Numbered from the stretch's first letter, positions 5,764-43,685 are shown. The stretch: 64,000 bases of DNA from Bacteroidota bacterium (GCA_030834125.1 JAURFW010000002.1:289-64288), one strand, 5' to 3'. Made by a program: numbers and translations. Notes: generated from the letters alone by a model not told the origin.

Positions 5764-5781
5764 AAATTGTATCTTTACCCT

Positions 5782-26285: not shown

Positions 26286-27365
26286 ATGCAGAAAAGTAGA
26301 AATGATTTTTTAAATGAGTTAGCTTCTAAAAAAATCAAATATAATTTAGGTGCAGGAGTACCTCCACTTGATCTATATCCAAACCTAAATTTGGAAAAAT
26401 ATTTTGCTGGATTTAATATCATATCAAACCAGGACTTAATTGGCTATCATCATACAACTGGATTAATTCAAAAGGCTGCTTCTATTTTTTTAGAGGTTAA
26501 TGAAGGGTTAACTGTTGATTCTGATAATATCGTGATTTCTAATGGAGTCCAAGAAGCAATAACATTAACTATTTCTTTGTTTAGAAACAGTACTTTAGCT
26601 TGCTTAGATCCTTCATATCCAGGTTTTGAAGATGCGGCTGCAACATTTGGATGTAAGGTAAAAAAATTAAAAAATGTCAATTGGATCAAACAAATAGAAA
26701 AATTACCTGAAGGTAGCCTTTTTTATTTATCGTCAGATTTTTCAAATCCAGAAGGGTATTCGATTTCAATTGAAGACAGAAATAAGTTAGTTGAGATAGC
26801 TGAAAAAAATAAATTCTTCATTTTTGACGACGCTACCTATAGGCCTTTTAATTTAGATGTTTCATTTCCTTCGCTATTGTCACTTAATAGTGATTATGTT
26901 ATTCATGCTGTTTCATTTTCTAAATTTTTAGCTCCAGGACTACGTACAGCGTTTATTTATATACCACAAAGTTTAAAATCAGGGTTTGTTCGGTCCAAGT
27001 CTAATATTAGTTTAAATAATTCTGGTATTACTCAGTTTATCATAAAGAGATGGTTAGAAGAGAACAACTATAGTCTGAAAAAACAGTTAAATGCTATCAA
27101 GCAAAGATTAATTGCTAATAGAGAAATTACCAGAAAATTTAATATTTCGTATAATGGTGGTTTCTTTTGTACAATTGCCCTTGATAAAGATGCAGATTAC
27201 ACATTTTGTGAAAAATTATTAGAAAACGAAAAAATCGCGGTAATTCCAATGGAATTGTTTACTCAAGAAAAGAGATATAAAAATCAACTAAGGCTTTGTA
27301 TTGCTAATATCGATGCTGAAAAATTAGATTTGGTTTTAAATAAAATAATCAAATTCATAGCATAA
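26286..27365 (+). CDS. PLP-dependent aminotransferase, class I/II fold. First gene of the NRPS cluster and a candidate aryl-glycine transaminase.
   Basis: 359 aa. The PLP-lysine region 'SFSKFLAPGLRTAF' fits the S-x-S-K...G-x-R signature. 'DPSYPGFEDAA' also matches. Confidence 0.75.
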   Translation: MQKSRNDFLNELASKKIKYNLGAGVPPLDLYPNLNLEKYFAGFNIISNQDLIGYHHTTGLIQKAASIFLEVNEGLTVDSDNIVISNGVQEAITLTISLFRNSTLACLDPSYPGFEDAAATFGCKVKKLKNVNWIKQIEKLPEGSLFYLSSDFSNPEGYSISIEDRNKLVEIAEKNKFFIFDDATYRPFNLDVSFPSLLSLNSDYVIHAVSFSKFLAPGLRTAFIYIPQSLKSGFVRSKSNISLNNSGITQFIIKRWLEENNYSLKKQLNAIKQRLIANREITRKFNISYNGGFFCTIALDKDADYTFCEKLLENEKIAVIPMELFTQEKRYKNQLRLCIANIDAEKLDLVLNKIIKFIA

Positions 27366-27372
27366 TTTTATA

Positions 27373-28437
27373 ATGAAGATCAACGGAGTATTATTTGTAG
27401 AAATTTATGTAGGTATGGCTAAAATGGTTGCTTGGTGGCACCAAATGGCACTTGGTTTTACCTTGAAGGGTATAAGGGAGAGTAAAGGAAAGTATGGGGA
27501 CGAAATAACTTATTGGTTGCAGAGTGGAGATGCAAATATATTAATCACTTCTGCATTAGACCCTGCAGCTCATGATGTAATTTCCTTTGTTGACAGACAT
27601 GGCAATTCAATTAAAAGATTTGGTATTGAAGTTGATTCAATTAATAGTACTTATGACTTTCTAAAAAAAAGTTCTGCAATTTTAACTTCGGGAATCGTAG
27701 AGGAAGAAGTAGGCGATGAATACAGTGCTCGCATAAACATAAAGCTGTTTGACGATAATGAAATAAGTTTTGTGGAACGTAAAAATTGTGTAGCGCCGTT
27801 TGCAGGATTTAATAATATTGAACATTCTTTCAGTCAGAATTTTATCAAGAATATTGACCATCTTGCTTCTGTAGTTAGAATAAATGAGGCAGATTTTTGG
27901 AATCAATACCTCAGTAATATATTAAATCTTCAATTGGTTCAGACGATAGGAGAAGAATTTTTTGCCAATCTCCTTTCTGGAATGAAGATGTTTGTATTAA
28001 ATTCATCTATTGGAAAATTTAGTAAAGTAATTGTAGAGCCGCTCCCTGAAAAAGAAAAAAAATCTCAGGTAGATGTTTTTTTAAATAGCCATTTTGGAAA
28101 TGGAATTCAGCATCTTGCGTTTGAAGTTGATGATCTGATTCAGACGGTTGAATTACTTAAATCTAAAGGAGTTATTTTTACTAAAGTTCCTGAAAAATAT
28201 TATATTGATCTCGAAAAAGAGGCTCCTGAACTCCCCATAGAAATGCTACGAAAAGCAAATATCCTGTGTGAAAAGGATGAAGATAAAATTCTTCTACAAG
28301 TTTTTACAGAACCTATTGGAGATCGGCCTACGCTCTTTTATGAATTTATTCAACGTGTAAATAGTTATAAAGGCTTTGGGGCAACCAATGTTAAACAGTT
28401 ATTTAAAGCTCTCGAGAATCATTTAAATAATGACTGA
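27373..28437 (+). CDS. 4-hydroxyphenylpyruvate dioxygenase-like enzyme of the VOC superfamily, i.e. HPPD or hydroxymandelate-synthase type.
   Basis: 354 aa. Two VOC modules ('GVLFVEIYVG...', 'IDHLASVV', 'GIQHLAFEVDD'). The C-terminal 'QVFTEPIGDRPTLFYEFIQR' is diagnostic of the HPPD/HmaS family. Confidence 0.7.
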   Translation: MKINGVLFVEIYVGMAKMVAWWHQMALGFTLKGIRESKGKYGDEITYWLQSGDANILITSALDPAAHDVISFVDRHGNSIKRFGIEVDSINSTYDFLKKSSAILTSGIVEEEVGDEYSARINIKLFDDNEISFVERKNCVAPFAGFNNIEHSFSQNFIKNIDHLASVVRINEADFWNQYLSNILNLQLVQTIGEEFFANLLSGMKMFVLNSSIGKFSKVIVEPLPEKEKKSQVDVFLNSHFGNGIQHLAFEVDDLIQTVELLKSKGVIFTKVPEKYYIDLEKEAPELPIEMLRKANILCEKDEDKILLQVFTEPIGDRPTLFYEFIQRVNSYKGFGATNVKQLFKALENHLNND

Positions 28438-29617
28438 AATTAAAGATCATTCTGGAATTAAGGGCAATCCGTTAGATAGATGTTCTCCAATTGAAGTAGG
28501 AGAGCTGATCAGTTTTTTAAAGAAAAATCCTAATTCAAAATATAGAATAGGTGCTGGATTGAGTGGAGTGAGTGGAGCTGCGGTTCCTTTGCACGATGAA
28601 TTATATATTGATTTTTCCAATTATAAAAAATTAAACTGGATCGATAAAAAATCTGGATTATTCAGCGCTTTTTCAGGTAATACCATGTTTGAAATAAAAA
28701 ACTTTGTGGAAAAAGAGGGTTGGGATTTCCCAATTATGCCTGGAAGTTTTGAGAAAGCAACTATTGGTGGTATGATTGCTTGTAATGGAGGGGGGCTGTT
28801 CTCTTTGAGGTATGGTAAAATTGGAAACTTTGTTCGGGAAATTGATATAGTAACTTGTTCAGGAGATAAAATGAAATTTGGTTCACAATGCAGTAAAATA
28901 TCGGAAGGACCGGATTTCTCAAAACTACTCATCGGATCTGAAGGGAGTCTCGGATTTTTAGATAAGATTACTTTACAATGTACACGATTACCCGCAATTG
29001 ATCTTTATCGAATTTCTTCAACTTCTTTTTCCAAACTTTCTGCATCTGTATGTGATTTTTTAAAGTATAATCCCATTTATTTGGAAATGGCTGAGCAAGA
29101 TGCATTGCGCTTCAGTTCAGGGGCAAATGAATCAGTTATTTGGCTTGGTTTGCAAAAAGGGATGCGGTTTTCACCTGGAAATTCAAAATTTAAAATTGAA
29201 AATATACCTCCACAAAATATAAATGAGCGTTTGGATATTGGCCGAAATTTACAGAAATATAAAAAGTTTATTGATTTAGATATAAGTTTTCCGGTTGCCC
29301 ACAGTTCAGAAATTCTTACAGAGCTTAAATTTCTTTTAAATAATTATAATGTTGAATCAATCTTTTTTGGCCACGCTGGTGATGGTAACTGGCATATTCA
29401 TATATTCTATGATAATCTCAATCCTTTTAATGAACTAATGAGTTCCGAATTCGATTTAATTCTTTTAAAATACGGAGGGCATATTAGTGGAGAACACGGC
29501 ATTGGAAGAATTCATAAAAATAGATTCATCAAATTTAAGGATGAAGGATATCAAAATCTGTATGGTGTATTTAAAAAATATCTCGATCCGAAAAATCAAT
29601 TACCCTCAATTTTCTGA
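28430..29617 (+). CDS. FAD-linked oxidase (FAD_binding_4 / GlcD-type 2-hydroxy-acid oxidase or dehydrogenase).
   Basis: 395 aa. 'YRIGAGLSGVSGAAVP' and 'KATIGGMIACNGGG' match the FAD-binding PCMH-type domain. Overlaps the upstream gene by 8 nt. Confidence 0.65.
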   Translation: MTEIKDHSGIKGNPLDRCSPIEVGELISFLKKNPNSKYRIGAGLSGVSGAAVPLHDELYIDFSNYKKLNWIDKKSGLFSAFSGNTMFEIKNFVEKEGWDFPIMPGSFEKATIGGMIACNGGGLFSLRYGKIGNFVREIDIVTCSGDKMKFGSQCSKISEGPDFSKLLIGSEGSLGFLDKITLQCTRLPAIDLYRISSTSFSKLSASVCDFLKYNPIYLEMAEQDALRFSSGANESVIWLGLQKGMRFSPGNSKFKIENIPPQNINERLDIGRNLQKYKKFIDLDISFPVAHSSEILTELKFLLNNYNVESIFFGHAGDGNWHIHIFYDNLNPFNELMSSEFDLILLKYGGHISGEHGIGRIHKNRFIKFKDEGYQNLYGVFKKYLDPKNQLPSIF

Positions 29618-30231
29618 TGAATAATTTTATCCTTTTAGAGTTTGATCATATATCAAGATTTGATTATTCAGAATTGTCTAAATTCAGTGACGATTGGTGT
29701 GAAAGTATAAAAGAACCTAAACGAAGAATGGAAAGCCAGTTGGCGAGATTATTATTAAATAAAAGTTGTATTGAACTTTTAAATAAAAATCTGAGCCAGT
29801 GTGCATTCAAAAAAGATAAATTGGGTAAGCCGTTTCTTGAGAATTATCCGAAATACCATATTTCAATTTCTCATTGCAATGGATATGTTTGGACTGGAAT
29901 TTCAAACTCACCAATTGGAATTGATTTTGAAAAGATTGAATTAGAATGTATAGAGGATTTACGAATAGCATTTGATAATGAAGACTGGCAGAATATTTCC
30001 CATAATCCGGAATTGATTTTTGAATATTTTTCTCTCAAAGAATCATATTTAAAAATGTTGGGTATTGGGTTTACAAAAGAGCCATCGGAGATAAGAAATT
30101 ATACACTAAAAGATAACATTTATTCAGAACTATTTGATACCTCAAATCAGAAATTTATTTTTACTTTGATAATAAAAAATTTTAAACCTAGCCATTATAT
30201 TAAATCCAACCAAATATTCTCAAAATTATAA
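29617..30231 (+). CDS. Sfp-type 4'-phosphopantetheinyl transferase.
   Basis: 204 aa. 'LGKPFL', 'ISISHCNGYV', 'GIDFEKIE' and 'FSLKESYLKMLGIGF' match PPTase motifs P1a/P2/P3. Confidence 0.8.
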   Translation: MNNFILLEFDHISRFDYSELSKFSDDWCESIKEPKRRMESQLARLLLNKSCIELLNKNLSQCAFKKDKLGKPFLENYPKYHISISHCNGYVWTGISNSPIGIDFEKIELECIEDLRIAFDNEDWQNISHNPELIFEYFSLKESYLKMLGIGFTKEPSEIRNYTLKDNIYSELFDTSNQKFIFTLIIKNFKPSHYIKSNQIFSKL

Positions 30232-30232: not shown

Positions 30233-30997
30233 ATGAACAATAATAACCTTAAGGATTATTTAGAGAGAGGATTTGTATTTTTTGATAATTATACCGTTAC
30301 CATAACGGAAGATCTTGAAAACAAAATTACGGGATCAGCACATTCGGTTAAGTTTTATGAATCTGATGGTGAAACTATCAGATCCTTTTATGGGTTTCAT
30401 AGGGATACCCATATCAAGGAATGGATTCAGCTACAAAAGCCGATACAAGAAATTTGTAAAAAAATATATCCAAATGAAGATATTTATATTCATCAGTCAA
30501 AAGTAAATATCAAAAACACCATAGAAAGTTCAGTTTGGCCATTTCATCGTGATTTCCCATTTTGGAATGTTTTTGATGGTATTGCTGATAATAGGCTGTT
30601 GAATGTAGTAATATTTATGGATGATGTAAATGAAGATAATGGCGCATTAAGTTTTATACCAGGGAGCCAAAAGTACTTTCTTGAAAGGGAAAAAGAATTT
30701 GCAAAACAGGGCTACAGTTTGGAAGGTTCGGCTTCGAATAATTTAAATTTTGATTTTAATCAATATGAAGTTGAAGCATTCAAACTTAAATTTGGAAATG
30801 AACTAATAACTGGTCCTAAAGGGTCGATTGTAATATTTAACCCAAATTTAGTGCACGGATCATCTTTTTCGACTCAAGATTTTAGCAGAAAATTAATGTT
30901 ACTCACTATTAATGTTTGTACCAATAAGCCTAAAATTCCAGCTATCCGCCCCGATTATTTATGTTCAACAGACTTTTCCCCGATAAAGTGGAATTAA
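30233..30997 (+). CDS. PhyH-family Fe(II)/2-oxoglutarate-dependent dioxygenase, a candidate amino-acid hydroxylase.
   Basis: 254 aa. 'VWPFHRDF' (H-x-D) and a distal 'NPNLVHGSS' His. Its stop is 6 nt before the NRPS-1 ATG. Confidence 0.65.
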   Translation: MNNNNLKDYLERGFVFFDNYTVTITEDLENKITGSAHSVKFYESDGETIRSFYGFHRDTHIKEWIQLQKPIQEICKKIYPNEDIYIHQSKVNIKNTIESSVWPFHRDFPFWNVFDGIADNRLLNVVIFMDDVNEDNGALSFIPGSQKYFLEREKEFAKQGYSLEGSASNNLNFDFNQYEVEAFKLKFGNELITGPKGSIVIFNPNLVHGSSFSTQDFSRKLMLLTINVCTNKPKIPAIRPDYLCSTDFSPIKWN

Positions 30998-31002
30998 AAG
31001 AA

Positions 31003-34000
31003 ATGAATCATAAAGAATATTGGTTAGCCTATTTGGAAATGATTCCAAAATTTTCATATGAATCCTTTTACACTGAAGAGCAAATAACAGAAAATATAGT
31101 GCTACCTGAAAGTTTGTCTAGATTATCTAAAATGAATAGTCACAACGCACAACTTTTACTAGCCGTAAGTATTTCAAAGTTGTTTAGTTTAAAAAATATT
31201 TTTGAAAACGTTTCTATAGAATTAGTTAACCAATATATTCCACTTCCAGATTGCAACGAACAAATTCTGAGTGATGCAGCCAAGAATGTTTTGACTAATT
31301 TTCGGCAACATTTAAATAATTTACCGGCAATTGAATTTCAGCCTTCATTAATAAACTTCTATCAACACGAGGCTAACAGGAAATCATTAATTAATTTCAA
31401 AATTGATGAATCCTTGAGCAAGTTGCAAGTGTTGATGCCGTCCAATTTTAAAACATTCGTAAATCTACTTTTCAAAGAAACATTCGATTTACTCGAAACC
31501 ATAGGAACCAATAAAGGAATTTCATTTTCTGATACACTCTTAAAGGAGTTTAATGGGATAAGCAGAAATAAGCTGCCAGAAATAGTTGAAAAATGCTGGC
31601 CAGAGATTCATGATTTCCCTTTAAAGCCCGAATTAAGTTACCTTGAAAATGGCGGAGATTCTATACAGGCAATTCGGTTACTTTCAAGGTTGCAGCGTGA
31701 TGGTTATTTTTCTGATCTCAGTAGCCTTATTAATTCAAAAAGTATTTTGGATTGGAAAATTGAATATCGAGGCGTTAGTAATTTATTACCAGATTCTAAT
31801 TTACGGACTTATCCACTTTCTGCAACTCAGAAATTAATTTGGGAAGATTGGTCTTCCTTAAACCAATTACATATTTACCATGAGCAGTTTCTTTTCAAAT
31901 TAGACAAATGTCCAACTTATGAAGTTATAAAATCTGCTTATGAATATATTTGGCAAAAATATCCGCAATTAAGGGTCAATATAGATTATGAAGAAAATGG
32001 CTTTATACAAATTGTCCAGGAGTCTAAAGCCGATTTTAGGATTATAAAAGGGAAGGGGATAGATGAGATTTTACAAGCTGATTTATCTGAACCTTTTGGA
32101 AAAATCCTGATGCGCTGTACTTTCATTGATTTAGATAAAGATAAATACATACTTTGGTCTCATCATCATGTTCTTCTTGATGGTTGGAGTGTAGGTAAAC
32201 TAATTGCTGAATTTATTGAAATTATTGAACGGGGAATACCAAAATTGACTATTTCACCAAACTATCAGCAGATTTTGCTAGGTAAAGAGAATTTAATAGC
32301 TAATGAAAATGAAACTGCATATTGGGAGAGTTTTTTCAATAATAGATCAGCTCTGGCACTTCCAAAAAAATCAGCAGAAAAGGGTGAATATGAAACGTTT
32401 ATTGCAAAATTAGATAATATTGAAAATTTCCGAAGTGCTTCGGAAAAGGCAGCGGTTAGTCTTCAGAGCTATCTGCTGACACATTTTTTTCTGACAGTTT
32501 TTAGTATTAATGGAAAAAATAATACTTATTTACATAGTATATCTTCCGGAAGAAGTTTAATTCCGGAATACGCAGAAGAAGCTGTTGGCCTATTTATTAG
32601 AAACATAATTCCAGGTTTTGAAATCAAAGAAGACGATACTATACTGAGTCTTCTCCAAAATTTTCACAAAGATTTTATCAAGACGGTTGAAATGGAATTT
32701 ACTTCACCGGAATTAATAAATTCTTATCAAGAAGAGCGTCCCGATGTGCTTTTTGTTTTTGAAAACTACCCGTATCAAACTATTAAAGGCGATAAAATAA
32801 GCGGTGAATTAATTGATAATCATGAATTAACAGGCTATCCATTTAGTTTTCTAATTATGCCTCAGGATGATTGTCTAAATATAAAAATCATTTATGATAG
32901 TGGAAGATTTAGTTCAGAGTTTATTTCTACTTTCTACCATAAGTTTAGCTCACTGCTATTACATTTTAAAGCCAATCTGAACGATAAAGTTTATCAATTG
33001 GAAGATAGCCTCAATAAACTATCCATAATCAATGATAAGTTTCCATTTTGGTATGATGAGATTATTCGTAAAACGTCAAAATCAAAAAATCAAATTAGCA
33101 GTTCTAGGAGCGAAGAAAAAATTGCTTTCAATAAGATAGAAAATCTTGCTGCCAGTTTCAGTAATTATTTTAAAGATTTGCAAAAGGGCAATCGAATTGC
33201 TGTTTTTGGCGAAAAGAATGAAAAATTACCAGCAATAGCATATTCTATTATGCGAAATGGTTTTGTATATCTGCCCATTAATATTTCATGGCCTTTAGAC
33301 AGAATTAGTAAAACACTTAAACTTGCTGAATGCAGTCATATAATTATCACGGATGATTCTCCTTCATTGGAATTGCCTGATTACTTGACCATTCATAAAG
33401 ATGTTTTTAGTATAGAATCTGATATTTCAATAAATTATCGACCTGAATTGGATGATGAAGCATATTTGCTTTTTACATCAGGATCAAGTGGCATGCCAAA
33501 GGGGGTAAGCCTTAGCCATAAAAATCTATCCTCATTTCTAGATGCTTGTACTGAATATTGTGACCCAAACAATTATGAATTAATTTTTAGTTTTACTAAT
33601 ATCGGTTTTGACCTCTCAATTTTTGAAAATTTATATGGATTGTATTCCGATAAGTCAATTCATGTCATTCATAAACCAATTCATTTGTGGGAAGAATTAC
33701 AAAAGTTTAATGGAATATTGCTAAATACAGTACCTTCTGTAATTATTAATCTGAAAAGGGAAGAAATAAAAAATATTTCTGTTTTACATACAGCAGGAGA
33801 ACCTTTTAGAAATTCTGCCTGGGAACTTTTAAAAGAAGGAAATCCAAACATAAAAATTTTCAATTGGTATGGACCTACTGAAACAACTACTTATTCCACG
33901 TGTGTAGATTTAAGTGATGCATACTCAGCTTCTATCGGTAAAGCTCTTAAACACGAACTTATATTTATAACCGATGCATTGGGACTTAAACAAATGGATG

Positions 34001-35937
34001 GATTGGATGGAGAAATAATTATTGGTGGAGAAGGTGTTGGAAGATATTTAATTAATGAAAATGAGAAATTCCTTTGCAAATCGGAACTCAATTTTTACCG
34101 AACTGGAGATAGAGCCTTAAGAAAAAATGGACAAATTTATCTGAGGGGTAGAGAAGATCGCCAAGTGAAAAGATTAGGCCAAAGATTCGAACTTTCAGAA
34201 ATTGAACTTTGGATTATAGCCAATTATAATCAAATAAAAAGAGTGTATTACTACAAAAGTAAAGATGAACAATTTTTACTTTTTCTTGAGACAGAAGTGC
34301 TAAAAGAAGCAGAAATAAAAACAGCACTTAGTAATCAATTTCCGGATTATATGTTACCAGAATTGATTAAAATAATGCCATCATTCCCTGAAAATGATAA
34401 TGGGAAAATGGATATCGGACAAATGTTGAAATCAATTGACAAGATTGATAATGCGGCCAAATCAGACTCTAAATTGCTTGCCTCTTTGAAGCAAAAAGAT
34501 GGTCTTTTCAAATCATTGAATGGTAACTTAAGTTTTACATCACAAGGAGGGGATTCAATCTTAGGGCTTAGAATCATAAGCAAATTGAAAAAAATGGGCT
34601 ATCGAATTGAGATTTCAGACCTACTAAATGCTGAAAGTCTTAATGAATGTTTCAGTAAACTTAGAATTGAAGAAATAACTACATCTTCTATTACAGAAGA
34701 TTTAGTTTTATTAAGCCCTATTCAGAAGTGGTTCAAGGAAGATTACAAAGGAAATCTAAATCATTTTAATCAAAGTGTTTTGCTTGAGCTTTTCATCCCA
34801 TTAAGTACCGAAGAGATTTTTACAAAGGTTAAAATTTGTTTCAATTCAATAGATCTTTTAAAAAGAAGTTTTAATAGTAAATGGGAAGAAGCCCAATCTC
34901 CAATTTTTCAAATTATTAATATTCAAGATCATACAGATATAACTGCTCATTGTGAAATACTTCAAAGATCTTTCAATTTGATCGATGGCCCCGTTGCTGC
35001 AATTGCCATTTTTAAAAGTCCTAATAGTGTTTTCCTTTTTATTAGTATACATCATTTTTACTGTGATGGAATCACTTGGAGGATTTTGATGGATCGTTTA
35101 CAAGATTCACTTACAGGAATCGAAAGTAGTCAAACTGATATTCAGGTTTTCGGAAGGGTCCAAGCAGCATGTAGAGATTTTGGTCAATTAGATGAAAAAG
35201 ACAATTATTATCCCAATATAATTTCCAATCCATTTCAGAATTTACAAGTTTGTTCGTACAAACAGTCAGAATTTAGAAACATTGAGTGGAACGCAAATCG
35301 AAGCAATCATTTTTTAAAAAATTGGAATAAAGAACATACTGTAAATGAAAAATTTGTGAGCTTTTTTCTACATAGTTGGTTAAGAGCTAAACAACCAAAA
35401 ACCGCAATTTTTTTAGAAACTCACGGTAGACAATATTCGGGAATTCCGGAAATTACAGAATCTATTGGTTGGTTTACCCAGTTTTATATGTTGAGCGAAA
35501 ATGACTATCCTTCACAAAAAAATGAAATCAATCATTACGTTAAGCAAAGTTTCTCGAAACTACCAAATAATGGTCTAGGCTATATGGGCATGAGTAATTG
35601 GCAAACCCCCCCATTCCCTATTTTACTAAATTTCCTAGGCAGTTTTGATGAAAACTGGAATTCTATGGCAAGACCGGTAAATTTTGATGAAAGTAATCAA
35701 GTCGATCCCGATAATCCTATGTTAGCTTTTGTTGAAATAAATGGAATTATACTCGAAGGAAAAATAAGATGGATGTTTAGAACTCATCCTGAAGTCCCAA
35801 TTGATTTATTTGTTGCAGAATGGGAAAAATCAGCTATTGATTTACTTTCTAGCGATTCAGATATATACAGTAACGAGAATATTGATAAGGATGACATAGA
35901 CAAAATATCTCAAATACTCAATATTCCTGATTTATGA
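31003..35937 (+). CDS. NRPS protein 1. An unassigned ~200-aa N-terminal region, then T - C - A - T - E.
   Basis: The ORF track has 30961..35937; the likely start is the ATG at 31003. T0 'LENGGDSIQAIRL' (~31651). C 'HHHVLLDGWS' (32161-32190). A: A2-like 'RNGFVYLPIN', A3 'LFTSGSSGMPKGV' (~33469), A4 'FDLS', A5 'NWYGPTETTTYST', A7 'YRTGDRA', A8 'GREDRQVKRLGQRFELSEIE', A10 'NGKMD'. T1 'QGGDSILGLRI' (~34543). E domain 'PIQKWF', 'HHFYCDG' (35050-35070), 'ETHGRQ' (~35416). Acidic C-terminal tail. Confidence 0.9.
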   Translation: MNHKEYWLAYLEMIPKFSYESFYTEEQITENIVLPESLSRLSKMNSHNAQLLLAVSISKLFSLKNIFENVSIELVNQYIPLPDCNEQILSDAAKNVLTNFRQHLNNLPAIEFQPSLINFYQHEANRKSLINFKIDESLSKLQVLMPSNFKTFVNLLFKETFDLLETIGTNKGISFSDTLLKEFNGISRNKLPEIVEKCWPEIHDFPLKPELSYLENGGDSIQAIRLLSRLQRDGYFSDLSSLINSKSILDWKIEYRGVSNLLPDSNLRTYPLSATQKLIWEDWSSLNQLHIYHEQFLFKLDKCPTYEVIKSAYEYIWQKYPQLRVNIDYEENGFIQIVQESKADFRIIKGKGIDEILQADLSEPFGKILMRCTFIDLDKDKYILWSHHHVLLDGWSVGKLIAEFIEIIERGIPKLTISPNYQQILLGKENLIANENETAYWESFFNNRSALALPKKSAEKGEYETFIAKLDNIENFRSASEKAAVSLQSYLLTHFFLTVFSINGKNNTYLHSISSGRSLIPEYAEEAVGLFIRNIIPGFEIKEDDTILSLLQNFHKDFIKTVEMEFTSPELINSYQEERPDVLFVFENYPYQTIKGDKISGELIDNHELTGYPFSFLIMPQDDCLNIKIIYDSGRFSSEFISTFYHKFSSLLLHFKANLNDKVYQLEDSLNKLSIINDKFPFWYDEIIRKTSKSKNQISSSRSEEKIAFNKIENLAASFSNYFKDLQKGNRIAVFGEKNEKLPAIAYSIMRNGFVYLPINISWPLDRISKTLKLAECSHIIITDDSPSLELPDYLTIHKDVFSIESDISINYRPELDDEAYLLFTSGSSGMPKGVSLSHKNLSSFLDACTEYCDPNNYELIFSFTNIGFDLSIFENLYGLYSDKSIHVIHKPIHLWEELQKFNGILLNTVPSVIINLKREEIKNISVLHTAGEPFRNSAWELLKEGNPNIKIFNWYGPTETTTYSTCVDLSDAYSASIGKALKHELIFITDALGLKQMDGLDGEIIIGGEGVGRYLINENEKFLCKSELNFYRTGDRALRKNGQIYLRGREDRQVKRLGQRFELSEIELWIIANYNQIKRVYYYKSKDEQFLLFLETEVLKEAEIKTALSNQFPDYMLPELIKIMPSFPENDNGKMDIGQMLKSIDKIDNAAKSDSKLLASLKQKDGLFKSLNGNLSFTSQGGDSILGLRIISKLKKMGYRIEISDLLNAESLNECFSKLRIEEITTSSITEDLVLLSPIQKWFKEDYKGNLNHFNQSVLLELFIPLSTEEIFTKVKICFNSIDLLKRSFNSKWEEAQSPIFQIINIQDHTDITAHCEILQRSFNLIDGPVAAIAIFKSPNSVFLFISIHHFYCDGITWRILMDRLQDSLTGIESSQTDIQVFGRVQAACRDFGQLDEKDNYYPNIISNPFQNLQVCSYKQSEFRNIEWNANRSNHFLKNWNKEHTVNEKFVSFFLHSWLRAKQPKTAIFLETHGRQYSGIPEITESIGWFTQFYMLSENDYPSQKNEINHYVKQSFSKLPNNGLGYMGMSNWQTPPFPILLNFLGSFDENWNSMARPVNFDESNQVDPDNPMLAFVEINGIILEGKIRWMFRTHPEVPIDLFVAEWEKSAIDLLSSDSDIYSNENIDKDDIDKISQILNIPDL

Positions 35938-38900
35938 GAAAAGAGGATATTTTATCAATAGTTCCGTTATTACCCGCTCAGCAATATATGCTTGCTGCAT
36001 CTGTAAAAGATGGGCAATCGACCTATATTCAACAATTGGTTTTCAAGGTAAGGAATTATGACGGTAAAGCTATTGAAGAATCAATAAACAAGTTAGTTCA
36101 AAATTATGAGTGTTTTCGTTCTTTAATTCTTTTTGAAGGATTAAAACAGGCTGTTTGGGTGAGTATTAAAAATATCACTCCCAAATTCATATATCATCAA
36201 ATTAATGAAGCGGAATTGGATGAATTCTGTAAAAACAGACTTGAGCAAGGCTTTAAGTTGGATAAGGAAGTAGCTATGAAATTAGATTGGATTGAGAGCC
36301 AATCAGATAATTACCTTCTCATCACATATCATCATCTTCTATTTGACGGTTGGGGGCGTCAAAAAATTTTGAGTGAGGTGCTTTTTGCGCTTAAATTTCC
36401 CAGAGCCTCCATTAAGCCAAAACTGAATATTAATTGGTATGAAGCATGGAAACAACTCAATCATAATGAGGCTTTAAATGCATATAATACCTACCTAACA
36501 AGGTTTGATACTTTTGCAAGTCTTACACAACTAGGCCAAGGTCAAAATAAAAACTGCACACATTCCATCTCAATTGAGGAGATTCAAATTTCGAAAGCCG
36601 CAAGAAATCTAAATTTAACTCAGGCGGAATATGTTCTTTTTTCATGGGCTTGCTTTATTTCAAAATGGACAAATACAAGCAAAGTGCAATTGGGACAAAT
36701 TAAACAAAATGGCCTGATTGATAGTTGCAGAGATGGTTTTGGTCTGGGTATTCAAACCCTCCCATTTCAATTGGATATTGACTTTAATGTTACTATTGCA
36801 GAAACATTAAAAGTATTCAAACAAAGAGAGCGCAAACTAACAGATTACAGCTTTGTTGATACTACCAATGAAATTTTCCAACAGATTACTTACGATTTCA
36901 TTATTGCCTTTGAAAATTATCCAATAGAAAATTCATTGGTTGATTTTGAACATGATTTTATATTAATAAAAAATTATGATTTCTCTGAATTTCCACTCAG
37001 TTTGGCTATTAGTCCAAATAATGGAAAATTAATTTTTGACTGGCATTATAATCAAAAACAATATTGTCAAAGACAGATTGAAACGGTTGCTAAACATTTT
37101 ATTGAGTGCCTTGAAAAATTGCCGGTGAATATTGATTCTAGACTATGCAATTTGCGATTTTGGGAACCGAAACCTATACCACAATTCAAAATTAAAACAT
37201 CTCAAGAAGATTTTTTTTCAAGGATTGAGAAACATATTATTCAGGGGGGAAGAGAAGAACTCTACATTCAGCTCAAGAAATATTTTCAAAAATATAATAT
37301 AAATAGAGTTTGGATTATTGGTGACAAGCATAGCAATTCAGATTTACTCATATGTGCAGCTTGGTATTGCAAAATTGAAGTTTTAAGTCTTAATGAAAAA
37401 GAGTCCGCAGCATTCGTAATGCACCTTCATGATGAGTATTCCGCTGATCTGATTTTTACAAATGTCTCACCTTCTAGTTTTCCAAAAGCCATTTCAATGG
37501 ATTGTTTGGATAACCTACCAGAAAATCCGAATTCGAAATTATCAAAAAAATCGGATGTGGCACTTTCTATTTGTACTTCAGGATCAACAGGTAGGCCAAA
37601 GGTAGTTCAACTGAATTTAGAAAATTTAATTGCTTTTTTTGAAGCATGGGAAAAGAAATTACCTTGGAAATCAAACGAAGTTTTTGCTTCAATCGCGCAC
37701 CCTGCCTTTGATATTGGAGTAGCCGAACTTATTTTCCCACTATGGAAAGGTTTTCAAACAAAACTTATTTCAAAGGAGACGTTGTCAGATCCTATATTGC
37801 TAAATAGAGAATTACATGATGTAACAGCCTTTCATATGGTTCCTTCTTTGCTTGAGAACTGGATAGAAAATTCTCCGGCAGATAATAAAAATAGAATTGT
37901 GATGACAGGGGGGGATAAAGTGCCTTCGAATTTGCAATCTAAACTATCAAAGAAATTTCCAAACGTTCGACTATTTCAATTTTACGGGCCATCGGAATGT
38001 TCAGTTTTATCTTCTGGATTTGAAAATACAGGAGATTTTGAAAATCACTTTTCTCCTTTAGGTACAAATTTTGATCACTGCGAACTTTTTGTTTTTTCAA
38101 AAGATATTAATCAGTCTGCCCCTTTTCAAGAGGGAGAAATAATTGTTTGTGGTCCAGCTGTTGGTTTGGGTTATGCTTTCGATAATGAGGATAATAAGTT
38201 TTTCTATTACAAAGGGCAAAAGGCCTACAGGACAGGAGATTTCGGATTTTTTGATGAAAATGGGAACTTGTTTTTCAGAGGCAGAAAAGATAATCAAATA
38301 AAAATCAATGGTCAGCGAATTGAACTTTCCAGGATTGAAACTGCTTTATCAGAATGGTCGTCAATTGAACATTGGGTTACTGTCAGTGATGGATTTAAAC
38401 TTTTTGCATTTGCCAAATCTGAAAAATCAAAGATTGAGAAACGTAGACAGGATTTACAAAATTGGTTGCCTTTTTATGCAATGCCGCATTTAATCCACTA
38501 TGTGAATGAATTTCCACTCAATAAGAATGGCAAATTAGACCGGCAACAATTAATTGAGTTAGGTAAAAAATTAGTTAATGTAAATATAGATTCAGCAATA
38601 GATGCTGATATTGATTTGTTATTCAAGGAACTTTTTCCAAATAGAGTTATAAATACAGCACTTTCTTGGTATGCTAATGGATTAAACTCGATAGATGCTC
38701 TTAAATTTTCTGGTTTGCTTAAGTCAAAACTGAAATTTACTATTGAAATAAATCAAATCCTTAGTATTGAAAGACTCACATCATTGAATTCATTAAAAAT
38801 TAAAGTTAATGATGAACCAGAAGAAATCACTATCAAGCCAGGTCAGGAGCTTTATTCAACAGCTGCAAGGATTGTATTTCTATCGGAATCAGATGATCAA

Positions 38901-41900
38901 TTTTTTAAAAGTTACTGGATTAACAGCGGTATAGTTTTACCTAAAGACATTGATACCAATGAGTTAAAATCATGGATATTAAATCAGACCAATTTGCACT
39001 TAGCAGTCATTGCCAATGACAATAAATACTTTTGGAAAGGAGTTGAACCTAAATTATTTGAGATTAAAGTTAGGAGTAGAAGCGAGTTTTCAGAGTTTGT
39101 TGAAAATAAATTTTTAAGCACAGATTCTTCGCTTTTTATGAGTTTTATTGGTTTTTCTGAAGGAGAAAATTATTTAGCATTTAAGGTGAATCATGCACTC
39201 CTGGATGGTTTAGGGTTGGAATTGTTGTGGAAGAAGTTGCAAAATGATCTTAAAAGTGGTTCAAGAAATAAAATAAATCTGATTGCTCCAAAAGAGGTTG
39301 AAATAGAACAAGATTTTTGGGAAAATTATCTCCAAGATGTTGAAATTAAAACGTTGCCTTTCTCGAGACAAAACTCCTCAAAAAAGAGAGTAAAAAGATT
39401 AAATATCAAACTCAATATCCAAGAAAAGGAAAGGTTACAAAAAATTTGCTCAGATTACGATTGTAGTTTATTTGAAGCAGGATTGATAATGTATTGTAAA
39501 CTATGGAAGTATTTTTATGCTTCTAAACCTCATACTATTGGAATTCCTGTAAATTTAGGCAGTTATGGCGAAGAAAATAATATTGCTGGAATGTCAGTAA
39601 ATATTCTTCCATTTCGCACGGATAACGAAAATTCCAAGGAAATACTTCAAAACTGGCGGTTCATATTTAAAAAAAGATTTACACCATTTTCGGATATAGC
39701 ACAATTGGATAAAAACCAGAAAAATGGCCTTCCTTTTTTCAATAGCACCTATCTCTACCATGCTCAAAAAGATATAGATAATACTTTTGAAAGTATAGAT
39801 TTTGAAAGAGCACAGACGGATTATGATCTTTCATTAGATTTCATTGAAACAAAAAATGATTTGATTTTTTCTTGGGAATTTAGGTCGGATTTTCTTTCAG
39901 AAACAGCTATCAAAAAAATTCATAGATGCTTATTTAATGATGTTGACATTAAAAATGATAGTAAATATTCAGTATTTACACCAATAAAATATCAATGGGA
40001 GCAAATAGTTGAGTTGTATTCTTCAAAAACAGCGTTAATATTTAATGATAAAAATTATAGTTATGCCGAACTTGCTAAGTTGGTTTTAGACCATCAAAAA
40101 AATTATCAAAATATTACTGATGGAATTGAGATTTTGATACTAGATCGTGACGTTTATTCAATTTCAAAACTACTTTTTCATTTAATTGAAGGAATTCCAT
40201 TTGTTCCTGTTGATGCAGAAACTAAACCAGATAGGATAGAGCAAATATTAATGTTGGCGAAAGATATAAATTTAAAAGATCCAACAAATAAAAATTTACA
40301 ATATGTTATAGCCACTTCTGGAACAACGGGTATACCGAAATTGGTGGGTGTGAGTAAAAGCGGTTATGGATCTGCCGTAGGTGCCTGGAAAGAGGATTAT
40401 AATATTAATTCAAACGATTGCTGCATGCAAGCCGCATCCTTTTCATTTGATGTTTCATTGGGTGATATCGGAAGAACATTTTTCAACGGTGCTACGATGT
40501 TACTATTAAATGCAAATGAACGGAAAGATCCGATGACAATGCTTCAAAAAATTTCGAATTTTTCGGTCACTGTTTTTGAAACTACACCACTAATCGCGCG
40601 TTGGTGGATATCTGAAAATATTAAACTTAAAACTTATTCAAGTCTTAGACTTCTTATTGTTGGATCGGATAGTTGGAAAATGGAAGAAATTAGAACTTTG
40701 TGCAAATCAAAAAATAAAGAACAGAAAGTTATAAATTCCTACGGGCTATCAGAAACAAGTATAGATAATAGTTTTTTCGACCCTGATTCAGATGATCAAA
40801 CATTCTATGCTAACGAGATGCTTGTTCCAATTGGAAAGGCAATGAGTCATTGCGAAATTGACATTGTGAATTCAGAAAAGCAAAGTTTAAAGAACGGAAT
40901 AGAAGGATTTATCAATATTTCAGGTCCGGCTGTGGGCTATGGTTATTTTCTTGATGGACATTGGACAAATTCGAATCCAGAACAATGGTTGACCGCAGAT
41001 CGTGGAATTATTGATGAGTGGGGGATTTGTCATTTTAAAGGAAGATCTGACCGTCAAGTTAAGGTAAGAGGGCAACGAGTTGAATTAGAAGAAATAGAAA
41101 ATATACTTTCGATAAATTCCAAAGGAACAATTTGGCATGTTGTTGATTTTGAACATGAATTTTCAATAGAGATGGCGGCATTTTACAACGTTGAATTATC
41201 AACTATTGAAATTCAAGAATTAAAAAAGTCAATAATCAGTAAATTTCCTAGTTATTTTTTACCAACACTTTTTATTCAAATTGAAAAAATTCCTTTAAAT
41301 ATTAATGGAAAAACAGATTTGAATGCTTTAAAGAAAATCGCTCAATCAAAATTTGAACAAAATGCTGAATTAAATGAAAATGAAGAAATAATTGAGAGGA
41401 TTTTGAGTTTATACAAGCAATGTTTTAACGAATCCGCAATTGAAGATCAAAACTTTTTTAGTAATGGTAAAAATAGTTTTGATGCAATGCATTTTGTAAG
41501 GACCTGGAATAAGATTTCTAATGAAAAAATGGCGGTACATCAGTTATTTGCGGCGCAAAATTTCAGAAATCTGGCTCAAATGTTAACTTTATCAGTAAGT
41601 ATTGATATTGAAAAAAGCTCAACAAAAAAGATTTCCAAGGCTCAAGAGGCAATTTGGTTTGAAATAAAACAGGGAAAAACAACACTTTATAATCTACCAC
41701 ATATAATAGAAATTCCAAATAAGTATAATATCAAAAAGTTTAAAGCGGCTTTTGAAAATACACTGAAAGTTTGTTCATCACTATTCGTGAGGTTTGAAGA
41801 AAATGATCTTGGAGACGTTTTTGAATTACCCTTAGATTGCGCAAATTATGTACTTCCCACAATCACAATTGAAAAATTGGAAGAGTTTAAATCGCAATCT

Positions 41901-43685
41901 TTTACAACAGAAATCAATTTGACGGAAGGTCCATCCTTTGAAGCGGCATTATTAATTAGTACAAATCAATATTATTTATATTTCAATCCTCATCACATAG
42001 TATATGATGGAGGTTCCGATGCTGTTTTATTGAAAATATTTGATAATTTTTATAACGATAGATCTGAAATCCTAGAAAATTATACAGAAGTAATAAGTAG
42101 TAATACCGTTGATTGGGAATCCTACTTCAACTTAGTTTCAAAACCTGAAATTTGTTTTCAAAAAACCGATAGTTCAATACAACCTGGTTTATTTATCCCC
42201 TGTAGCAAGGAAGACTCTTCAAAGATTTATTCTATCGCAGAAAATTATCAATGTACTACGACAATTATCATTTCAAACCTATTAACTAAGGCATTGAATG
42301 AATCAGGCATTAATATAAATTGGATTTCCCTTGCAGTAGATCATCGGACCTATGATTGTGTAGGTATGCATATGCGCGCGCATCCTTTTCCAGGTTATAA
42401 TTCTGAAGAGGAATTAGATTTAAATATAGCCAAACAAAAATGGGCATTAAGCAAACTTTTTTCTGCAGCCGATCAAAATTTAATCTATCCGGATTCAATT
42501 TCTGTAGAGGCTTATCATCAGGTAGGTTTGGTTATTCAACATCCATTTTATCTTGAAAATTTAAATTATAAAGAAAGAATTGACCTTACTCGACCTAGGC
42601 TTCCATTAAGTTTGTATGTGGAGCAGATAAATGATCAATTCTTTTTCCGTTGGGAATTTGATAATAGTCAGATTTCAATGGATAAAATTAAGGAAATACA
42701 TAGTAATTTTTTCATTCTAGCTGATGAATTGGAATTTAGGGATAAAAAAATCTTACAGTTTAATCCTGTTACTGCAGCAGGTAAAAAATCGATAATTCCT
42801 ATTGACATTTTACCAGAACTAGAACAAATTTGGGTAAAATATACAGGAAGAGAAAATATCGAAACACTTCATTTTTTTGAAGCTGGTGCTAATAGTCTAA
42901 AGGCATTATTAATGCTAAAAGAAATAGAAAGGAAATTGCAAATACGCATTTCTACAGTAGATTTTTTCAAACAACCAACACTTACGTTTCTTTCAAAAGC
43001 AGTCGAAAAATTTGAATACAATGAGCTCATTTTCAAATTACAAGATGGTAATGACAGTAAAGAATTATGGCTTTTACCTCCAATTATGGGATTTGGTTAT
43101 ATTTTCAATAGTTTGAAATTACCAGATAATTTGAAAACTTTTGCCTTTAGTTACCCTGCTGCAATGGGAATAAATAAAGCTGGAAATATCGAGGAATTAG
43201 CTAGAATGCTTTTCAAAGAGCGCATTTCGGCATCAGAATTACCGGAAGAAATTACATTGCTAGGGTATTCAATGGGTGCCTTGACTGCATTTGAGTTGGC
43301 AAAATTACTCGAGGAACATAATGTAAAAGTGAAGAAATTGATAGTGCTGGACAAAACTGCACAACCTGAGTTTGGTCGAATTCTTGAACAGGTAGAGTTA
43401 AGAAGTGAACTTATGGAAATAGCAAAACAAATCGCCATAGATTCAACTGAATATAAAAGAATTATTGAATATCTTTCATCCCATGAATTGATGATCGAAG
43501 CTTATCAGCAAGTTGGGTTTTTAAATTGTCCAATTGAGGTATTCTATTGTGAAAACGGATTTCAAAAATTAGACTTTAATAAATGGAAGAGATTCACTTC
43601 TTCCGAATTACAACTCCAATCTCTAAAAAAATGTAATCATTATCAAATTCCAGATATTTGGAATGAATTGGATCTGAATTATTGA
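35934..43685 (+). CDS. NRPS protein 2: C - A - T - C - A - T - C - T - TE, carrying the terminal thioesterase.
   Basis: 2583 aa. C1 'YHHLLFDGWG' (~36330). A1 'ICTSGSTGRPKVV' (~37575), 'FYGPSECSV', 'YRTGDFG', 'GRKDNQIKINGQRIELSRIE', 'NKNGKLD'. T1 'NGLNSIDALKF' (~38679). C2 'NHALLDGLG' (~39189). A2 'IATSGTTGIPKLV' (~40308), 'NSYGLSETSID', 'GRSDRQVKVRGQRVELEEIE', 'NINGKTD'. T2 'NGKNSFDAMHF' (~41470). C3 'HHIVYDGGS' (~41991). T3 'EAGANSLKAL' (~42885). TE 'LLGYSMGALTAFELA' with GxSxG (~43263). Overlaps gene 1 by 4 nt. Confidence 0.9.
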   Translation: MRKEDILSIVPLLPAQQYMLAASVKDGQSTYIQQLVFKVRNYDGKAIEESINKLVQNYECFRSLILFEGLKQAVWVSIKNITPKFIYHQINEAELDEFCKNRLEQGFKLDKEVAMKLDWIESQSDNYLLITYHHLLFDGWGRQKILSEVLFALKFPRASIKPKLNINWYEAWKQLNHNEALNAYNTYLTRFDTFASLTQLGQGQNKNCTHSISIEEIQISKAARNLNLTQAEYVLFSWACFISKWTNTSKVQLGQIKQNGLIDSCRDGFGLGIQTLPFQLDIDFNVTIAETLKVFKQRERKLTDYSFVDTTNEIFQQITYDFIIAFENYPIENSLVDFEHDFILIKNYDFSEFPLSLAISPNNGKLIFDWHYNQKQYCQRQIETVAKHFIECLEKLPVNIDSRLCNLRFWEPKPIPQFKIKTSQEDFFSRIEKHIIQGGREELYIQLKKYFQKYNINRVWIIGDKHSNSDLLICAAWYCKIEVLSLNEKESAAFVMHLHDEYSADLIFTNVSPSSFPKAISMDCLDNLPENPNSKLSKKSDVALSICTSGSTGRPKVVQLNLENLIAFFEAWEKKLPWKSNEVFASIAHPAFDIGVAELIFPLWKGFQTKLISKETLSDPILLNRELHDVTAFHMVPSLLENWIENSPADNKNRIVMTGGDKVPSNLQSKLSKKFPNVRLFQFYGPSECSVLSSGFENTGDFENHFSPLGTNFDHCELFVFSKDINQSAPFQEGEIIVCGPAVGLGYAFDNEDNKFFYYKGQKAYRTGDFGFFDENGNLFFRGRKDNQIKINGQRIELSRIETALSEWSSIEHWVTVSDGFKLFAFAKSEKSKIEKRRQDLQNWLPFYAMPHLIHYVNEFPLNKNGKLDRQQLIELGKKLVNVNIDSAIDADIDLLFKELFPNRVINTALSWYANGLNSIDALKFSGLLKSKLKFTIEINQILSIERLTSLNSLKIKVNDEPEEITIKPGQELYSTAARIVFLSESDDQFFKSYWINSGIVLPKDIDTNELKSWILNQTNLHLAVIANDNKYFWKGVEPKLFEIKVRSRSEFSEFVENKFLSTDSSLFMSFIGFSEGENYLAFKVNHALLDGLGLELLWKKLQNDLKSGSRNKINLIAPKEVEIEQDFWENYLQDVEIKTLPFSRQNSSKKRVKRLNIKLNIQEKERLQKICSDYDCSLFEAGLIMYCKLWKYFYASKPHTIGIPVNLGSYGEENNIAGMSVNILPFRTDNENSKEILQNWRFIFKKRFTPFSDIAQLDKNQKNGLPFFNSTYLYHAQKDIDNTFESIDFERAQTDYDLSLDFIETKNDLIFSWEFRSDFLSETAIKKIHRCLFNDVDIKNDSKYSVFTPIKYQWEQIVELYSSKTALIFNDKNYSYAELAKLVLDHQKNYQNITDGIEILILDRDVYSISKLLFHLIEGIPFVPVDAETKPDRIEQILMLAKDINLKDPTNKNLQYVIATSGTTGIPKLVGVSKSGYGSAVGAWKEDYNINSNDCCMQAASFSFDVSLGDIGRTFFNGATMLLLNANERKDPMTMLQKISNFSVTVFETTPLIARWWISENIKLKTYSSLRLLIVGSDSWKMEEIRTLCKSKNKEQKVINSYGLSETSIDNSFFDPDSDDQTFYANEMLVPIGKAMSHCEIDIVNSEKQSLKNGIEGFINISGPAVGYGYFLDGHWTNSNPEQWLTADRGIIDEWGICHFKGRSDRQVKVRGQRVELEEIENILSINSKGTIWHVVDFEHEFSIEMAAFYNVELSTIEIQELKKSIISKFPSYFLPTLFIQIEKIPLNINGKTDLNALKKIAQSKFEQNAELNENEEIIERILSLYKQCFNESAIEDQNFFSNGKNSFDAMHFVRTWNKISNEKMAVHQLFAAQNFRNLAQMLTLSVSIDIEKSSTKKISKAQEAIWFEIKQGKTTLYNLPHIIEIPNKYNIKKFKAAFENTLKVCSSLFVRFEENDLGDVFELPLDCANYVLPTITIEKLEEFKSQSFTTEINLTEGPSFEAALLISTNQYYLYFNPHHIVYDGGSDAVLLKIFDNFYNDRSEILENYTEVISSNTVDWESYFNLVSKPEICFQKTDSSIQPGLFIPCSKEDSSKIYSIAENYQCTTTIIISNLLTKALNESGININWISLAVDHRTYDCVGMHMRAHPFPGYNSEEELDLNIAKQKWALSKLFSAADQNLIYPDSISVEAYHQVGLVIQHPFYLENLNYKERIDLTRPRLPLSLYVEQINDQFFFRWEFDNSQISMDKIKEIHSNFFILADELEFRDKKILQFNPVTAAGKKSIIPIDILPELEQIWVKYTGRENIETLHFFEAGANSLKALLMLKEIERKLQIRISTVDFFKQPTLTFLSKAVEKFEYNELIFKLQDGNDSKELWLLPPIMGFGYIFNSLKLPDNLKTFAFSYPAAMGINKAGNIEELARMLFKERISASELPEEITLLGYSMGALTAFELAKLLEEHNVKVKKLIVLDKTAQPEFGRILEQVELRSELMEIAKQIAIDSTEYKRIIEYLSSHELMIEAYQQVGFLNCPIEVFYCENGFQKLDFNKWKRFTSSELQLQSLKKCNHYQIPDIWNELDLNY

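Follow-up and report, generated by a model that had tools for sequence, protein, structure and literature searches.

Aryl-glycines such as 4-hydroxyphenylglycine (Hpg), 3,5-dihydroxyphenylglycine (Dpg) and phenylglycine (Phg) are hallmark constituents of glycopeptide, lipopeptide, and beta-lactam antibiotics. The canonical Hpg route, found in the gene clusters for glycopeptides, the calcium-dependent antibiotic (CDA), and nocardicin, employs 4-hydroxymandelate synthase (HmaS, EC 1.13.11.46), the FMN-dependent oxidase Hmo, and the aminotransferase HpgT, with an (S)-mandelate as intermediate. The Pgl route of pristinamycin instead proceeds via phenylacetyl-CoA and benzoylformyl-CoA and includes no enzyme with the fold of 4-hydroxyphenylpyruvate dioxygenase (HPPD). 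Genome searches recognize aryl-glycine pathways by the HmaS/Hmo/HpgT trio of actinomycetes. Here, we analyze a 64,000-nucleotide stretch of DNA from a Bacteroidota bacterium (GCA_030834125.1 JAURFW010000002.1:289-64288; the window), in which positions 26286-29617 encode a class I/II aminotransferase, an HPPD-family dioxygenase, and a flavoenzyme with FAD_binding_4 and FAD-oxidase_C domains at the head of a nonribosomal peptide synthetase (NRPS) cluster. The trio is probably a precursor cassette: an aromatic 2-oxo acid would lose one carbon and reach the NRPS as an aryl-glycine. An earlier note on this DNA had proposed an aryl-glycine precursor role, and that proposal emerges supported, with good probability on the residues and gene contexts described below, but unproven.

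All three genes lie on the plus strand, with the coordinates and families that the earlier note had given them, the families now confirmed by Pfam and NCBIfam matches. The first (26286..27365) encodes a compact, 359-residue pyridoxal phosphate (PLP)-dependent aminotransferase of the ARO8/MocR type (Pfam Aminotran_1_2, E 9e-29). The second (27373..28437) encodes a 354-residue non-haem Fe(II) dioxygenase of the HPPD family with Glyoxalase/VOC domains, the product of which includes 'EPIGDRPTLFYEFIQR'. The third (28430..29617) encodes a 395-residue FAD enzyme of the VAO/PCMH family, of the GlcD/D-lactate/D-2-hydroxyglutarate dehydrogenase type. The reading frames were said to overlap, which holds for two of the three junctions: dioxygenase and oxidase overlap by 8 nt and oxidase and the following 4'-phosphopantetheinyl transferase (PPTase) gene by 1 nt, but aminotransferase and dioxygenase are separated by a 7-nt gap. 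Similarly, the PPTase gene does adjoin the trio, which was described as directly upstream of PPTase and NRPS genes, but a PhyH-family gene that this description omitted stands between the PPTase and the first NRPS gene, N1.

In the proposed pathway, the HmaS-like dioxygenase would turn phenylpyruvate or 4-hydroxyphenylpyruvate into mandelate or hydroxymandelate by oxidative decarboxylation and benzylic hydroxylation. The metal-dependent FAD dehydrogenase, a member of the GlcD/D-lactate dehydrogenase family and not an Hmo, would then oxidize the mandelate to an aryl-glyoxylate, from which the PLP aminotransferase would make the aryl-glycine. By analogy with HpgT, phenylalanine or tyrosine could be the amino donor, regenerating the arylpyruvate. 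Finally, the aryl-glycine would be activated by one of the two adenylation (A) domains that lack a standard specificity code, most likely the first A domain of the second NRPS protein (N2_A1). This scheme shares with the Hpg pathway its three-step logic, its clustering with NRPS genes, and two of its three enzyme superfamilies (the HPPD-fold Fe(II) dioxygenase and the ARO8/MocR-type aminotransferase). It differs in the oxidase, which is a FAD_binding_4/GlcD-type metallo-flavoenzyme rather than an FMN_dh-type Hmo, and in the host, which belongs to Bacteroidota rather than Actinomycetota. The end product could be the same as that of the PglA-E pathway, where L-phenylglycine is formed by transamination of phenylglyoxylate. 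Our literature search, with most subscription journals outside its coverage, found no report of a GlcD/FAD_binding_4 enzyme in Hpg or Phg biosynthesis and none of Hpg in Bacteroidetes.

The strongest evidence for a precursor cassette, which we regard as decisive, is its recurrence in related genomes. By its closest relatives, metagenome-assembled genomes labelled Crocinitomicaceae and 'Saprospira', the window derives from a freshwater bacterium of the Bacteroidota. In close relatives (L001, L002, L005, and L006), aminotransferase, dioxygenase, oxidase, and PPTase genes keep the same order, to the extent that the contigs cover them. The PhyH gene follows the cassette in L001 and L006, L001 also has a downstream A domain with the N1 code, and in L006 NRPS genes were called and an M28 peptidase gene again follows the N4 homolog. 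Gene-called contexts were available for seven loci: L006, the dioxygenase of which is 64% identical to that of the window, and six distant clade members with 36-41% identity (L007-L012). A FAD_binding_4/FAD-oxidase_C gene lies near the dioxygenase gene in six of the seven, directly 3' in L006, L009, L010, L011, and L012 and within 2.3 kb in L008. An aminotransferase gene adjoins the dioxygenase gene or lies within a few kilobases of it, again in six (L006, L007, L008, L010, L011, and L012), and NRPS genes are present in four (L006, L008, L011, and L012). Thus, an HPPD-like dioxygenase, an oxidase non-homologous to Hmo, an aminotransferase, and NRPS genes are found together in the window and in these four relatives. 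In addition, 11 pairs of dioxygenase and oxidase sequence clusters have longest contigs of equal size, a proxy for location on the same contig. This recurrence shows that the trio is not a chance juxtaposition. As a control, a Kitasatospora locus (L014) displays the canonical arrangement, with HmaS followed directly by a fused 805-residue protein (11020-13437) in which an FMN_dh (Hmo) domain precedes an Aminotran_1_2 (HpgT) domain.

Two further observations concern the enzymes that accompany dioxygenases of this kind. Genes of the flavin monooxygenase (FMO) type (Pyr_redox_3/FMO-like/Lys_Orn_oxgnase) occur in L007 (11151-12758), where the gene stands in place of the GlcD-type oxidase, and in L010 (12720-14702), where it accompanies the trio. 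In L015 and L016, a dioxygenase that is HmaS-like and retains the phenol-binding serine (6001-7107; S/V/V/I/Y, P0110) is encoded between a short-chain dehydrogenase/reductase (SDR; adh_short) gene and an aminotransferase gene, with CmlA-like, MbtH, and ABC genes as neighbors. The SDR may be a third enzyme family for the oxidation step, and its position suggests that this step has been filled by different families more than once.

The dioxygenase has HPPDs as its best overall matches (135-273 bits, TM-score up to 0.90) but departs from them where HPPD function is decided. It scores 218 bits against the HPPD model TIGR01263 (EC 1.13.11.27), under the 277-bit equivalog cut-off, and among structures in the Protein Data Bank (PDB) it scores 135 bits with Streptomyces avermitilis HPPD (1T47), 117 with a mutant of S. 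coelicolor 4-hydroxymandelate synthase (Hms; 3ZGJ), and 89 with Amycolatopsis orientalis HmaS (2R5V). Residues were mapped with a 113-sequence L-INS-i alignment and an ungapped profile-to-1T47/human alignment, and the PDB numbering of 1T47, 2R5V, and 3ZGJ was checked on the Fe triads, on HmaS S201/T214/I216/I335/Y339, and on 3ZGJ M221/F223/A359. The Fe triad is kept (H163, H247, and E324, equivalent to 1T47 H187, H270, and E349), as are three glutamine residues and F336, F359, and N363 (1T47 numbering), all features shared with HPPDs including the human enzyme (3ISQ). The residues M206, V219, V221, V340, and F344 correspond to 1T47 S230, P243, N245, F364, and F368, so that Pro243, Asn245, and Phe364, which define HPPDs and are required for attack on the ring and for the NIH shift, are all replaced by valine, and Ser230 is replaced as well. 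V219 is equivalent to human P239 and to P214 in the numbering of Gunsior, V221 to human N241, and V340 to human F364 and Gunsior F337. A first pairwise HMMER alignment had placed Lys205 opposite Ser230, an assignment that was discarded when both the multiple sequence alignment and the profile alignment gave Met206.

At these three switch positions, Thr, Ile, and Ile are found in HmaS, Pro, Asn, and Phe in HPPD, and Val throughout in the window dioxygenase. Val221 and Val340 match the aliphatic Ile216 and Ile335 of 2R5V, and nearly all of the ~100 members of the dioxygenase clade have Val or Ile at both positions, the exceptions at the Asn245 position being Ser (P0031 and P0038), Thr (P0099), and Ala (P0104). 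Written as the pattern S230/P243/N245/F364, true HPPDs among the matches are S/P/N/F and actinomycete HmaS enzymes S/T/(I,V)/I, while the close family of the window dioxygenase (~58 clusters, 47-100% identical) is M/V/V/(V,I) almost throughout and the wider clade (~40 clusters, 33-43% identical) mostly L/V/V/(I,V). Mutations of HPPD at the Pro, Asn, and Phe positions are reported to yield hydroxymandelate, oxepinone, or uncoupling: the S. avermitilis variant F337I (Gunsior numbering) forms hydroxymandelate and oxepinone beside homogentisate, human N241S is uncoupled, and P214T, at the position of human P239, was also studied in the S. avermitilis enzyme (PMC13260116, PMC3739788). Judged by its active site, the window dioxygenase is not a genuine HPPD. 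It is HmaS-like at two switch positions, but it has lost every polar contact to a para-hydroxyl. Met206, Val219, and Phe344 stand in place of Ser201, Thr214, and Tyr339 of HmaS.

The loss of these contacts bears on the substrate. The HmaS serine hydrogen-bonds the p-hydroxyl of the substrate, and Hms variants that contain S221M favor phenylpyruvate and give (R)-mandelate (PMC6199770). A hydrophobic para pocket formed by Met206, Val219, Val221, and Val340 would favor phenylpyruvate, and hence phenylglycine as the product, which we consider more likely than Hpg. The variants engineered for (R)-mandelate carry S221M together with V223F or V223M and Y359A (PMC6199770); 3ZGJ is the (R)-mandelate variant S221M/V223F/Y359A (Pratter et al, 2013). 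The window dioxygenase has a natural methionine, Met206, at the position of S221, but it is a natural protein of a different clade and has V208 and F344 at the positions of the other two substitutions.

An AlphaFold2 model of the dioxygenase (pLDDT 91) matches HPPD and HmaS structures with TM-scores of 0.86-0.90 (0.88-0.90 for HPPD); the Foldseek matches confirm the two-barrel VOC fold and, being equally good for both enzymes, cannot separate them. As to ancestry, profile scores and a tree both place the protein nearer to HPPD. The earlier note had named active-site residues and phylogeny as the means of telling HmaS from HPPD. The residues speak against HPPD, as described above, while the phylogeny falls on the HPPD side and not with actinomycete HmaS. 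Together with the residue pattern, this placement points to convergence rather than to HPPD function: the HmaS-like residues look as if they were acquired independently in a separate lineage that is closer to HPPD than to HmaS. In a scan of 1.84 billion representatives, the canonical S/P/N/F/F pattern, with F368 as the fifth position, occurs in just 34 of the 150 HPPD-family representatives with the best scores. SVVIF, SPVIF, and SVTIF are frequent among these 150 (P0237-P0384 range), many have aliphatic residues with the serine retained, and the Met/Leu type is a small subset. Many database annotations as 'HPPD' therefore probably hide other chemistries.

The flavoenzyme occupies the position that Hmo holds in the canonical pathway. 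The earlier note had assigned it to the FAD_binding_4/GlcD type rather than to the FMN-dependent Hmo type, and this assignment stands: both FAD domains are present, and no FMN-type Hmo (FMN_dh) was found in the 64-kb window. Among NCBIfam models it comes closest to GlcD (TIGR00387), at 145 bits far under the 568-bit cut-off; its nearest PDB relatives are LctD (7QH2) and human D2HGDH (6LPN), both at E about 1e-26, plus a glycolate oxidase. It retains 'HAGDGNWH' and 'SGEHG'. When it is aligned with the oxidases of cassettes from six further loci, residues R267, H315, H322, E355, and H356 do not vary. This Arg / His-x6-His / Glu-His site matches Arg347/His398/His405/Glu442/His443 of mouse LDHD in order and spacing. 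With the metal-dependent FAD D-2-hydroxyacid dehydrogenases (LDHD, D2HGDH, GlcD, and LctD) it shares the domain pair and this Arg/His/His/Glu/His site, but it is ~65 residues shorter than usual, in the N-terminus and cap region, is at most ~30% identical to generic members, and lies in a secondary-metabolite cassette with an aryl 2-hydroxy acid as its proposed substrate. Some 70 clusters make up the discrete family to which it belongs; outside this family, identity falls steeply to 30% or less. FAD-containing D-mandelate dehydrogenase activity was reportedly described in Acinetobacter calcoaceticus by Allison, Fewson and co-workers in the 1980s. Mouse LDHD is Mn-dependent, acts on hydrophobic D-2-hydroxyacids, and is inactive on L-lactate and on the L-forms in racemic substrates (PMC10589216). 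We propose that the window enzyme is a dehydrogenase or oxidase that converts mandelate to aryl-glyoxylate. Since its characterized relatives are strictly D-specific and D-mandelate is the (R)-enantiomer, it is predicted to be D-(R)-stereospecific on mandelate, with (R)-mandelate as the intermediate.

Taken with the S221M-like methionine, this prediction raises a more specific and more tentative reading, namely that the cassette encodes an enantio-complementary phenylglycine route in which an HPPD-derived lineage with Met or Leu in place of Ser would have arrived at mandelate synthesis separately from actinomycete HmaS and would produce (R)-mandelate for a dedicated, miniaturized, metal-dependent FAD D-2-hydroxyacid dehydrogenase. 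The same doubtful reading would have the pair spread over Bacteroidota, Acidobacteriota, and other uncultured lineages, feeding NRPS and possibly also non-NRPS pathways.

The aminotransferase has 1VP4 and LysN (2EGY) as its best PDB relatives and is 45% identical to its L006 ortholog and 26-30% identical to the cassette aminotransferases of the distant loci. Residues N154, D182, Y185, S212-K213, R220, and R336 are invariant between it, the HpgT domain of the Kitasatospora fusion, and the cassette aminotransferases, and the PLP site is intact. The link to HpgT is clearest in the wider clade, where three of five aminotransferases (from L007, L008, and L010) share 37-42% identity with the canonical HpgT domain of L014 along their whole length (E 1e-93 to 1e-114) and the other two are ~30% identical. 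The proposed activity of the window enzyme is the conversion of aryl-glyoxylate to aryl-glycine, and possibly also of phenylalanine or tyrosine to the arylpyruvate.

If an aryl-glycine is made, one of the NRPS A domains should activate it. The note's count of six A domains is borne out. Their codes were read from an alignment to GrsA, which itself gives DAWTIAAICK at the canonical positions, and were assigned by comparison with a panel of known codes. Domain N2_A1 (37071..38603, plus strand; residues ~380-890 of N2) has the code DIAHMGFVLK; it agrees with the Hpg code DIYHLGLLCK (PMC9113097) at D, I, His278, Gly301, and K. This match is the best in the panel but covers only 5/10 positions, and so the suggestion that an aryl-glycine code might be present is borne out weakly: the N2_A1 code is compatible with an aryl-glycine pocket but does not establish one. 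The N1 domain has DLFNHAWTYK (Ala-like, 8/10), N2_A2 and the N3 domain both have DVGEIGSIDK (Orn), N4_A1 has DFWNIGMVHK (Thr), and DAHWVTFVVK of N4_A2 has no panel assignment. Asp235 is kept in all six, which argues for activation of amino acids rather than keto acids; a keto-acid-loading A domain was considered and ruled out on this ground. The 'DILQ...' codes in the partial NRPS sequence near the distant loci, considered as a cassette-linked type, turned out to be those of common Gly domains and bear no particular likeness to N2_A1.

Several observations weigh against an aryl-glycine cassette or against parts of it. For the dioxygenase, the family profile scores HPPDs at 271-273 bits and HmaS enzymes at 192-208, and in a rough, thinly sampled neighbor-joining tree its clade lies on the HPPD side of a 77% split, apart from an HmaS clade with 93% support. 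Of the three substitutions in the engineered R-selective Hms, it has only one, since V208 and F344 do not differ from the corresponding residues of HmaS/HPPD. The oxidase and aminotransferase of the window are both divergent, compact versions: the former has 22-28% identity to the oxidases of the wider clade, and the latter 23% (E 8e-20) to HpgT as found in the Kitasatospora Hmo-HpgT fusion. On the side of the NRPS, N2_A1 also matches the Gly code at 4/10 positions, which makes the Hpg match weak; its best structural homolog is the Gly module of LgrA; and its His278 would suit a hydroxylated ring better than phenylglycine, thus pulling in the opposite direction from the para pocket of the dioxygenase. 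The partial NRPS sequence contained in the 10-kb flanks of the distant cassette loci showed no clear code of the Hpg type. Finally, L009 and L010 have no NRPS gene within 10 kb of the cassette, which indicates that the cassette is not exclusively an NRPS accessory and may serve non-NRPS pathways too.

This last point leads to the alternative that survives best, although we consider it improbable: the product could be the aryl-glyoxylate or mandelate itself, used as a keto- or hydroxy-acid unit, as a benzoyl-type precursor, or outside NRPS assembly, with the aminotransferase acting only upstream to convert phenylalanine or tyrosine to the arylpyruvate. It would explain why the conserved core is the dioxygenase and FAD-oxidase pair, which L009 has without aminotransferase or NRPS, why L010 combines the trio with an FMO and no nearby NRPS, and why L007 pairs dioxygenase and aminotransferase with an FMO-type enzyme instead. 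It fits poorly with the Asp235, typical of alpha-amino-acid activation, of all six window A domains, with the clear HpgT homology of the wider-clade aminotransferases, and with the presence of the trio in one operon with the PPTase and NRPS genes.

Less probable again, and in our view unlikely, is that the same three-step logic operates on a non-aromatic or other 2-oxo acid to give a different non-proteinogenic amino acid. The substrates of S. coelicolor Hms include 2-oxo-4-phenylbutanoate along with other 2-oxo acids (PMC3720870), mouse LDHD-type enzymes accept many hydrophobic D-2-hydroxyacids (PMC10589216), the window dioxygenase has lost the phenol-binding serine, and two A-domain codes match no standard assignment. 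However, the residues that bind the aromatic ring (F336, F359, and N363) and the glutamines (1T47 numbering) do not vary within the clade, the cassette aminotransferases are HpgT-like, and a 3-deoxy-D-arabino-heptulosonate 7-phosphate (DAHP) synthase gene adjoins a related dioxygenase gene.

The tyrosine-catabolic fragment that the earlier note had allowed for, with a tyrosine aminotransferase and a genuine HPPD beside an unrelated glycolate or D-lactate oxidase, is very improbable, and ordinary tyrosine catabolism was rejected on residues and context: HPPDs are the best overall sequence and fold matches, and source databases label the relatives 'HPPD' and 'glycolate oxidase', but the HPPD Pro, Asn, and Phe are all replaced, at positions where mutation of HPPD abolishes or uncouples homogentisate formation, the score is under the TIGR01263 cut-off, the 64-kb window contains no homogentisate-pathway gene (hmgA, maleylacetoacetate isomerase, or fumarylacetoacetase), translational coupling links the genes to the PPTase/NRPS operon, and the pairing with the oxidase is conserved in distant loci.

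If the trio does supply an aryl-glycine, mining for aryl-glycine peptides would widen to Bacteroidota and other little-studied phyla, where rules built on HmaS, Hmo, and HpgT would miss such pathways. The trio would also exemplify, in nature, the replacement of one enzyme by a non-orthologous one, here along with a probable inversion of the stereochemistry of the intermediate. To our knowledge, engineering has until now been the only source of (R)-mandelate synthases and aryl-2-hydroxyacid FAD dehydrogenases, which are sought for the production of chiral mandelate and phenylglycine; the cassette could yield natural versions of both.

The remaining genes of the cluster are all on the plus strand. 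The Sfp-type PPTase (29617..30231) matches Pfam ACPS and AASDHPPT_N, the latter at only 24.1 bits, under the 27-bit cut-off, and its nearest NCBIfam model, AusB, gives 50 bits, far under the 225-bit cut-off. The PhyH-family Fe(II)/2-oxoglutarate dioxygenase (30233..30997; Pfam PhyH, E 3e-19) has ectoine hydroxylase as its nearest NCBIfam model, at 88 bits far under the 336.5-bit cut-off, and is probably an amino-acid hydroxylase with a tailoring role. N1 (30961..35937) has an unmatched N-terminal region followed by thiolation (T), condensation (C), A, T, and epimerization (E) domains. Within its residues 1-290, ~200 residues without a Pfam match precede a carrier domain (GGDSI, residue 231) that stands ahead of the first C domain, which suggests an unusual loading arrangement. 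N2 (35934..43685) is organized as C-A1-T-C-A2-T-C-T-TE, where TE is a thioesterase domain, and has a degenerate C domain with 'NHALLDG' near residue 1070. N3 (43693..46416) comprises a C-like domain, an A domain, and a possible T domain, and N4 (46896..53681) has the order C-like, A, T, C, A, T, C-like. The C-like domains have HHxxxDA rather than HHxxxDG, near residue 111 of N3 (HHCLADA) and near residues 144 and 2032 of N4 (HHLLFDA and HHIVLDA), and thus lie twice at a protein N-terminus and once at a C-terminus.

Between N3 and N4 lies a gene for a 129-residue SET-domain protein (46433..46822; Pfam SET, E 8e-14). SET domains are protein-lysine methyltransferases and are unusual in bacterial NRPS operons; with two Orn-type A domains nearby, this protein might methylate a side-chain amine. 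Genes for an M28 peptidase (53681-54526) and a class I methyltransferase (54528-55295) mark the probable end of the cluster. The G+C content (GC) is low across the window (0.30-0.39). In the cluster (26000-55300) it is 0.30-0.33, against 0.34-0.39 in the housekeeping flanks, and it rises again past ~55 kb, a difference compatible with horizontal acquisition. The remainder of the window holds housekeeping genes. A CHU_C protein of the type IX secretion system (T9SS) is also encoded in the window. An acidic 126-residue open reading frame with no family match (25805-26185, plus strand) lies immediately 5' of the trio. Farther upstream, transketolase is encoded on the plus strand in two halves, Transketolase_N (4915-5763) and Transket_pyr plus the C-terminal domain (7159-8118), parted by a gene for a 463-residue VWA-domain protein (5767-7158).

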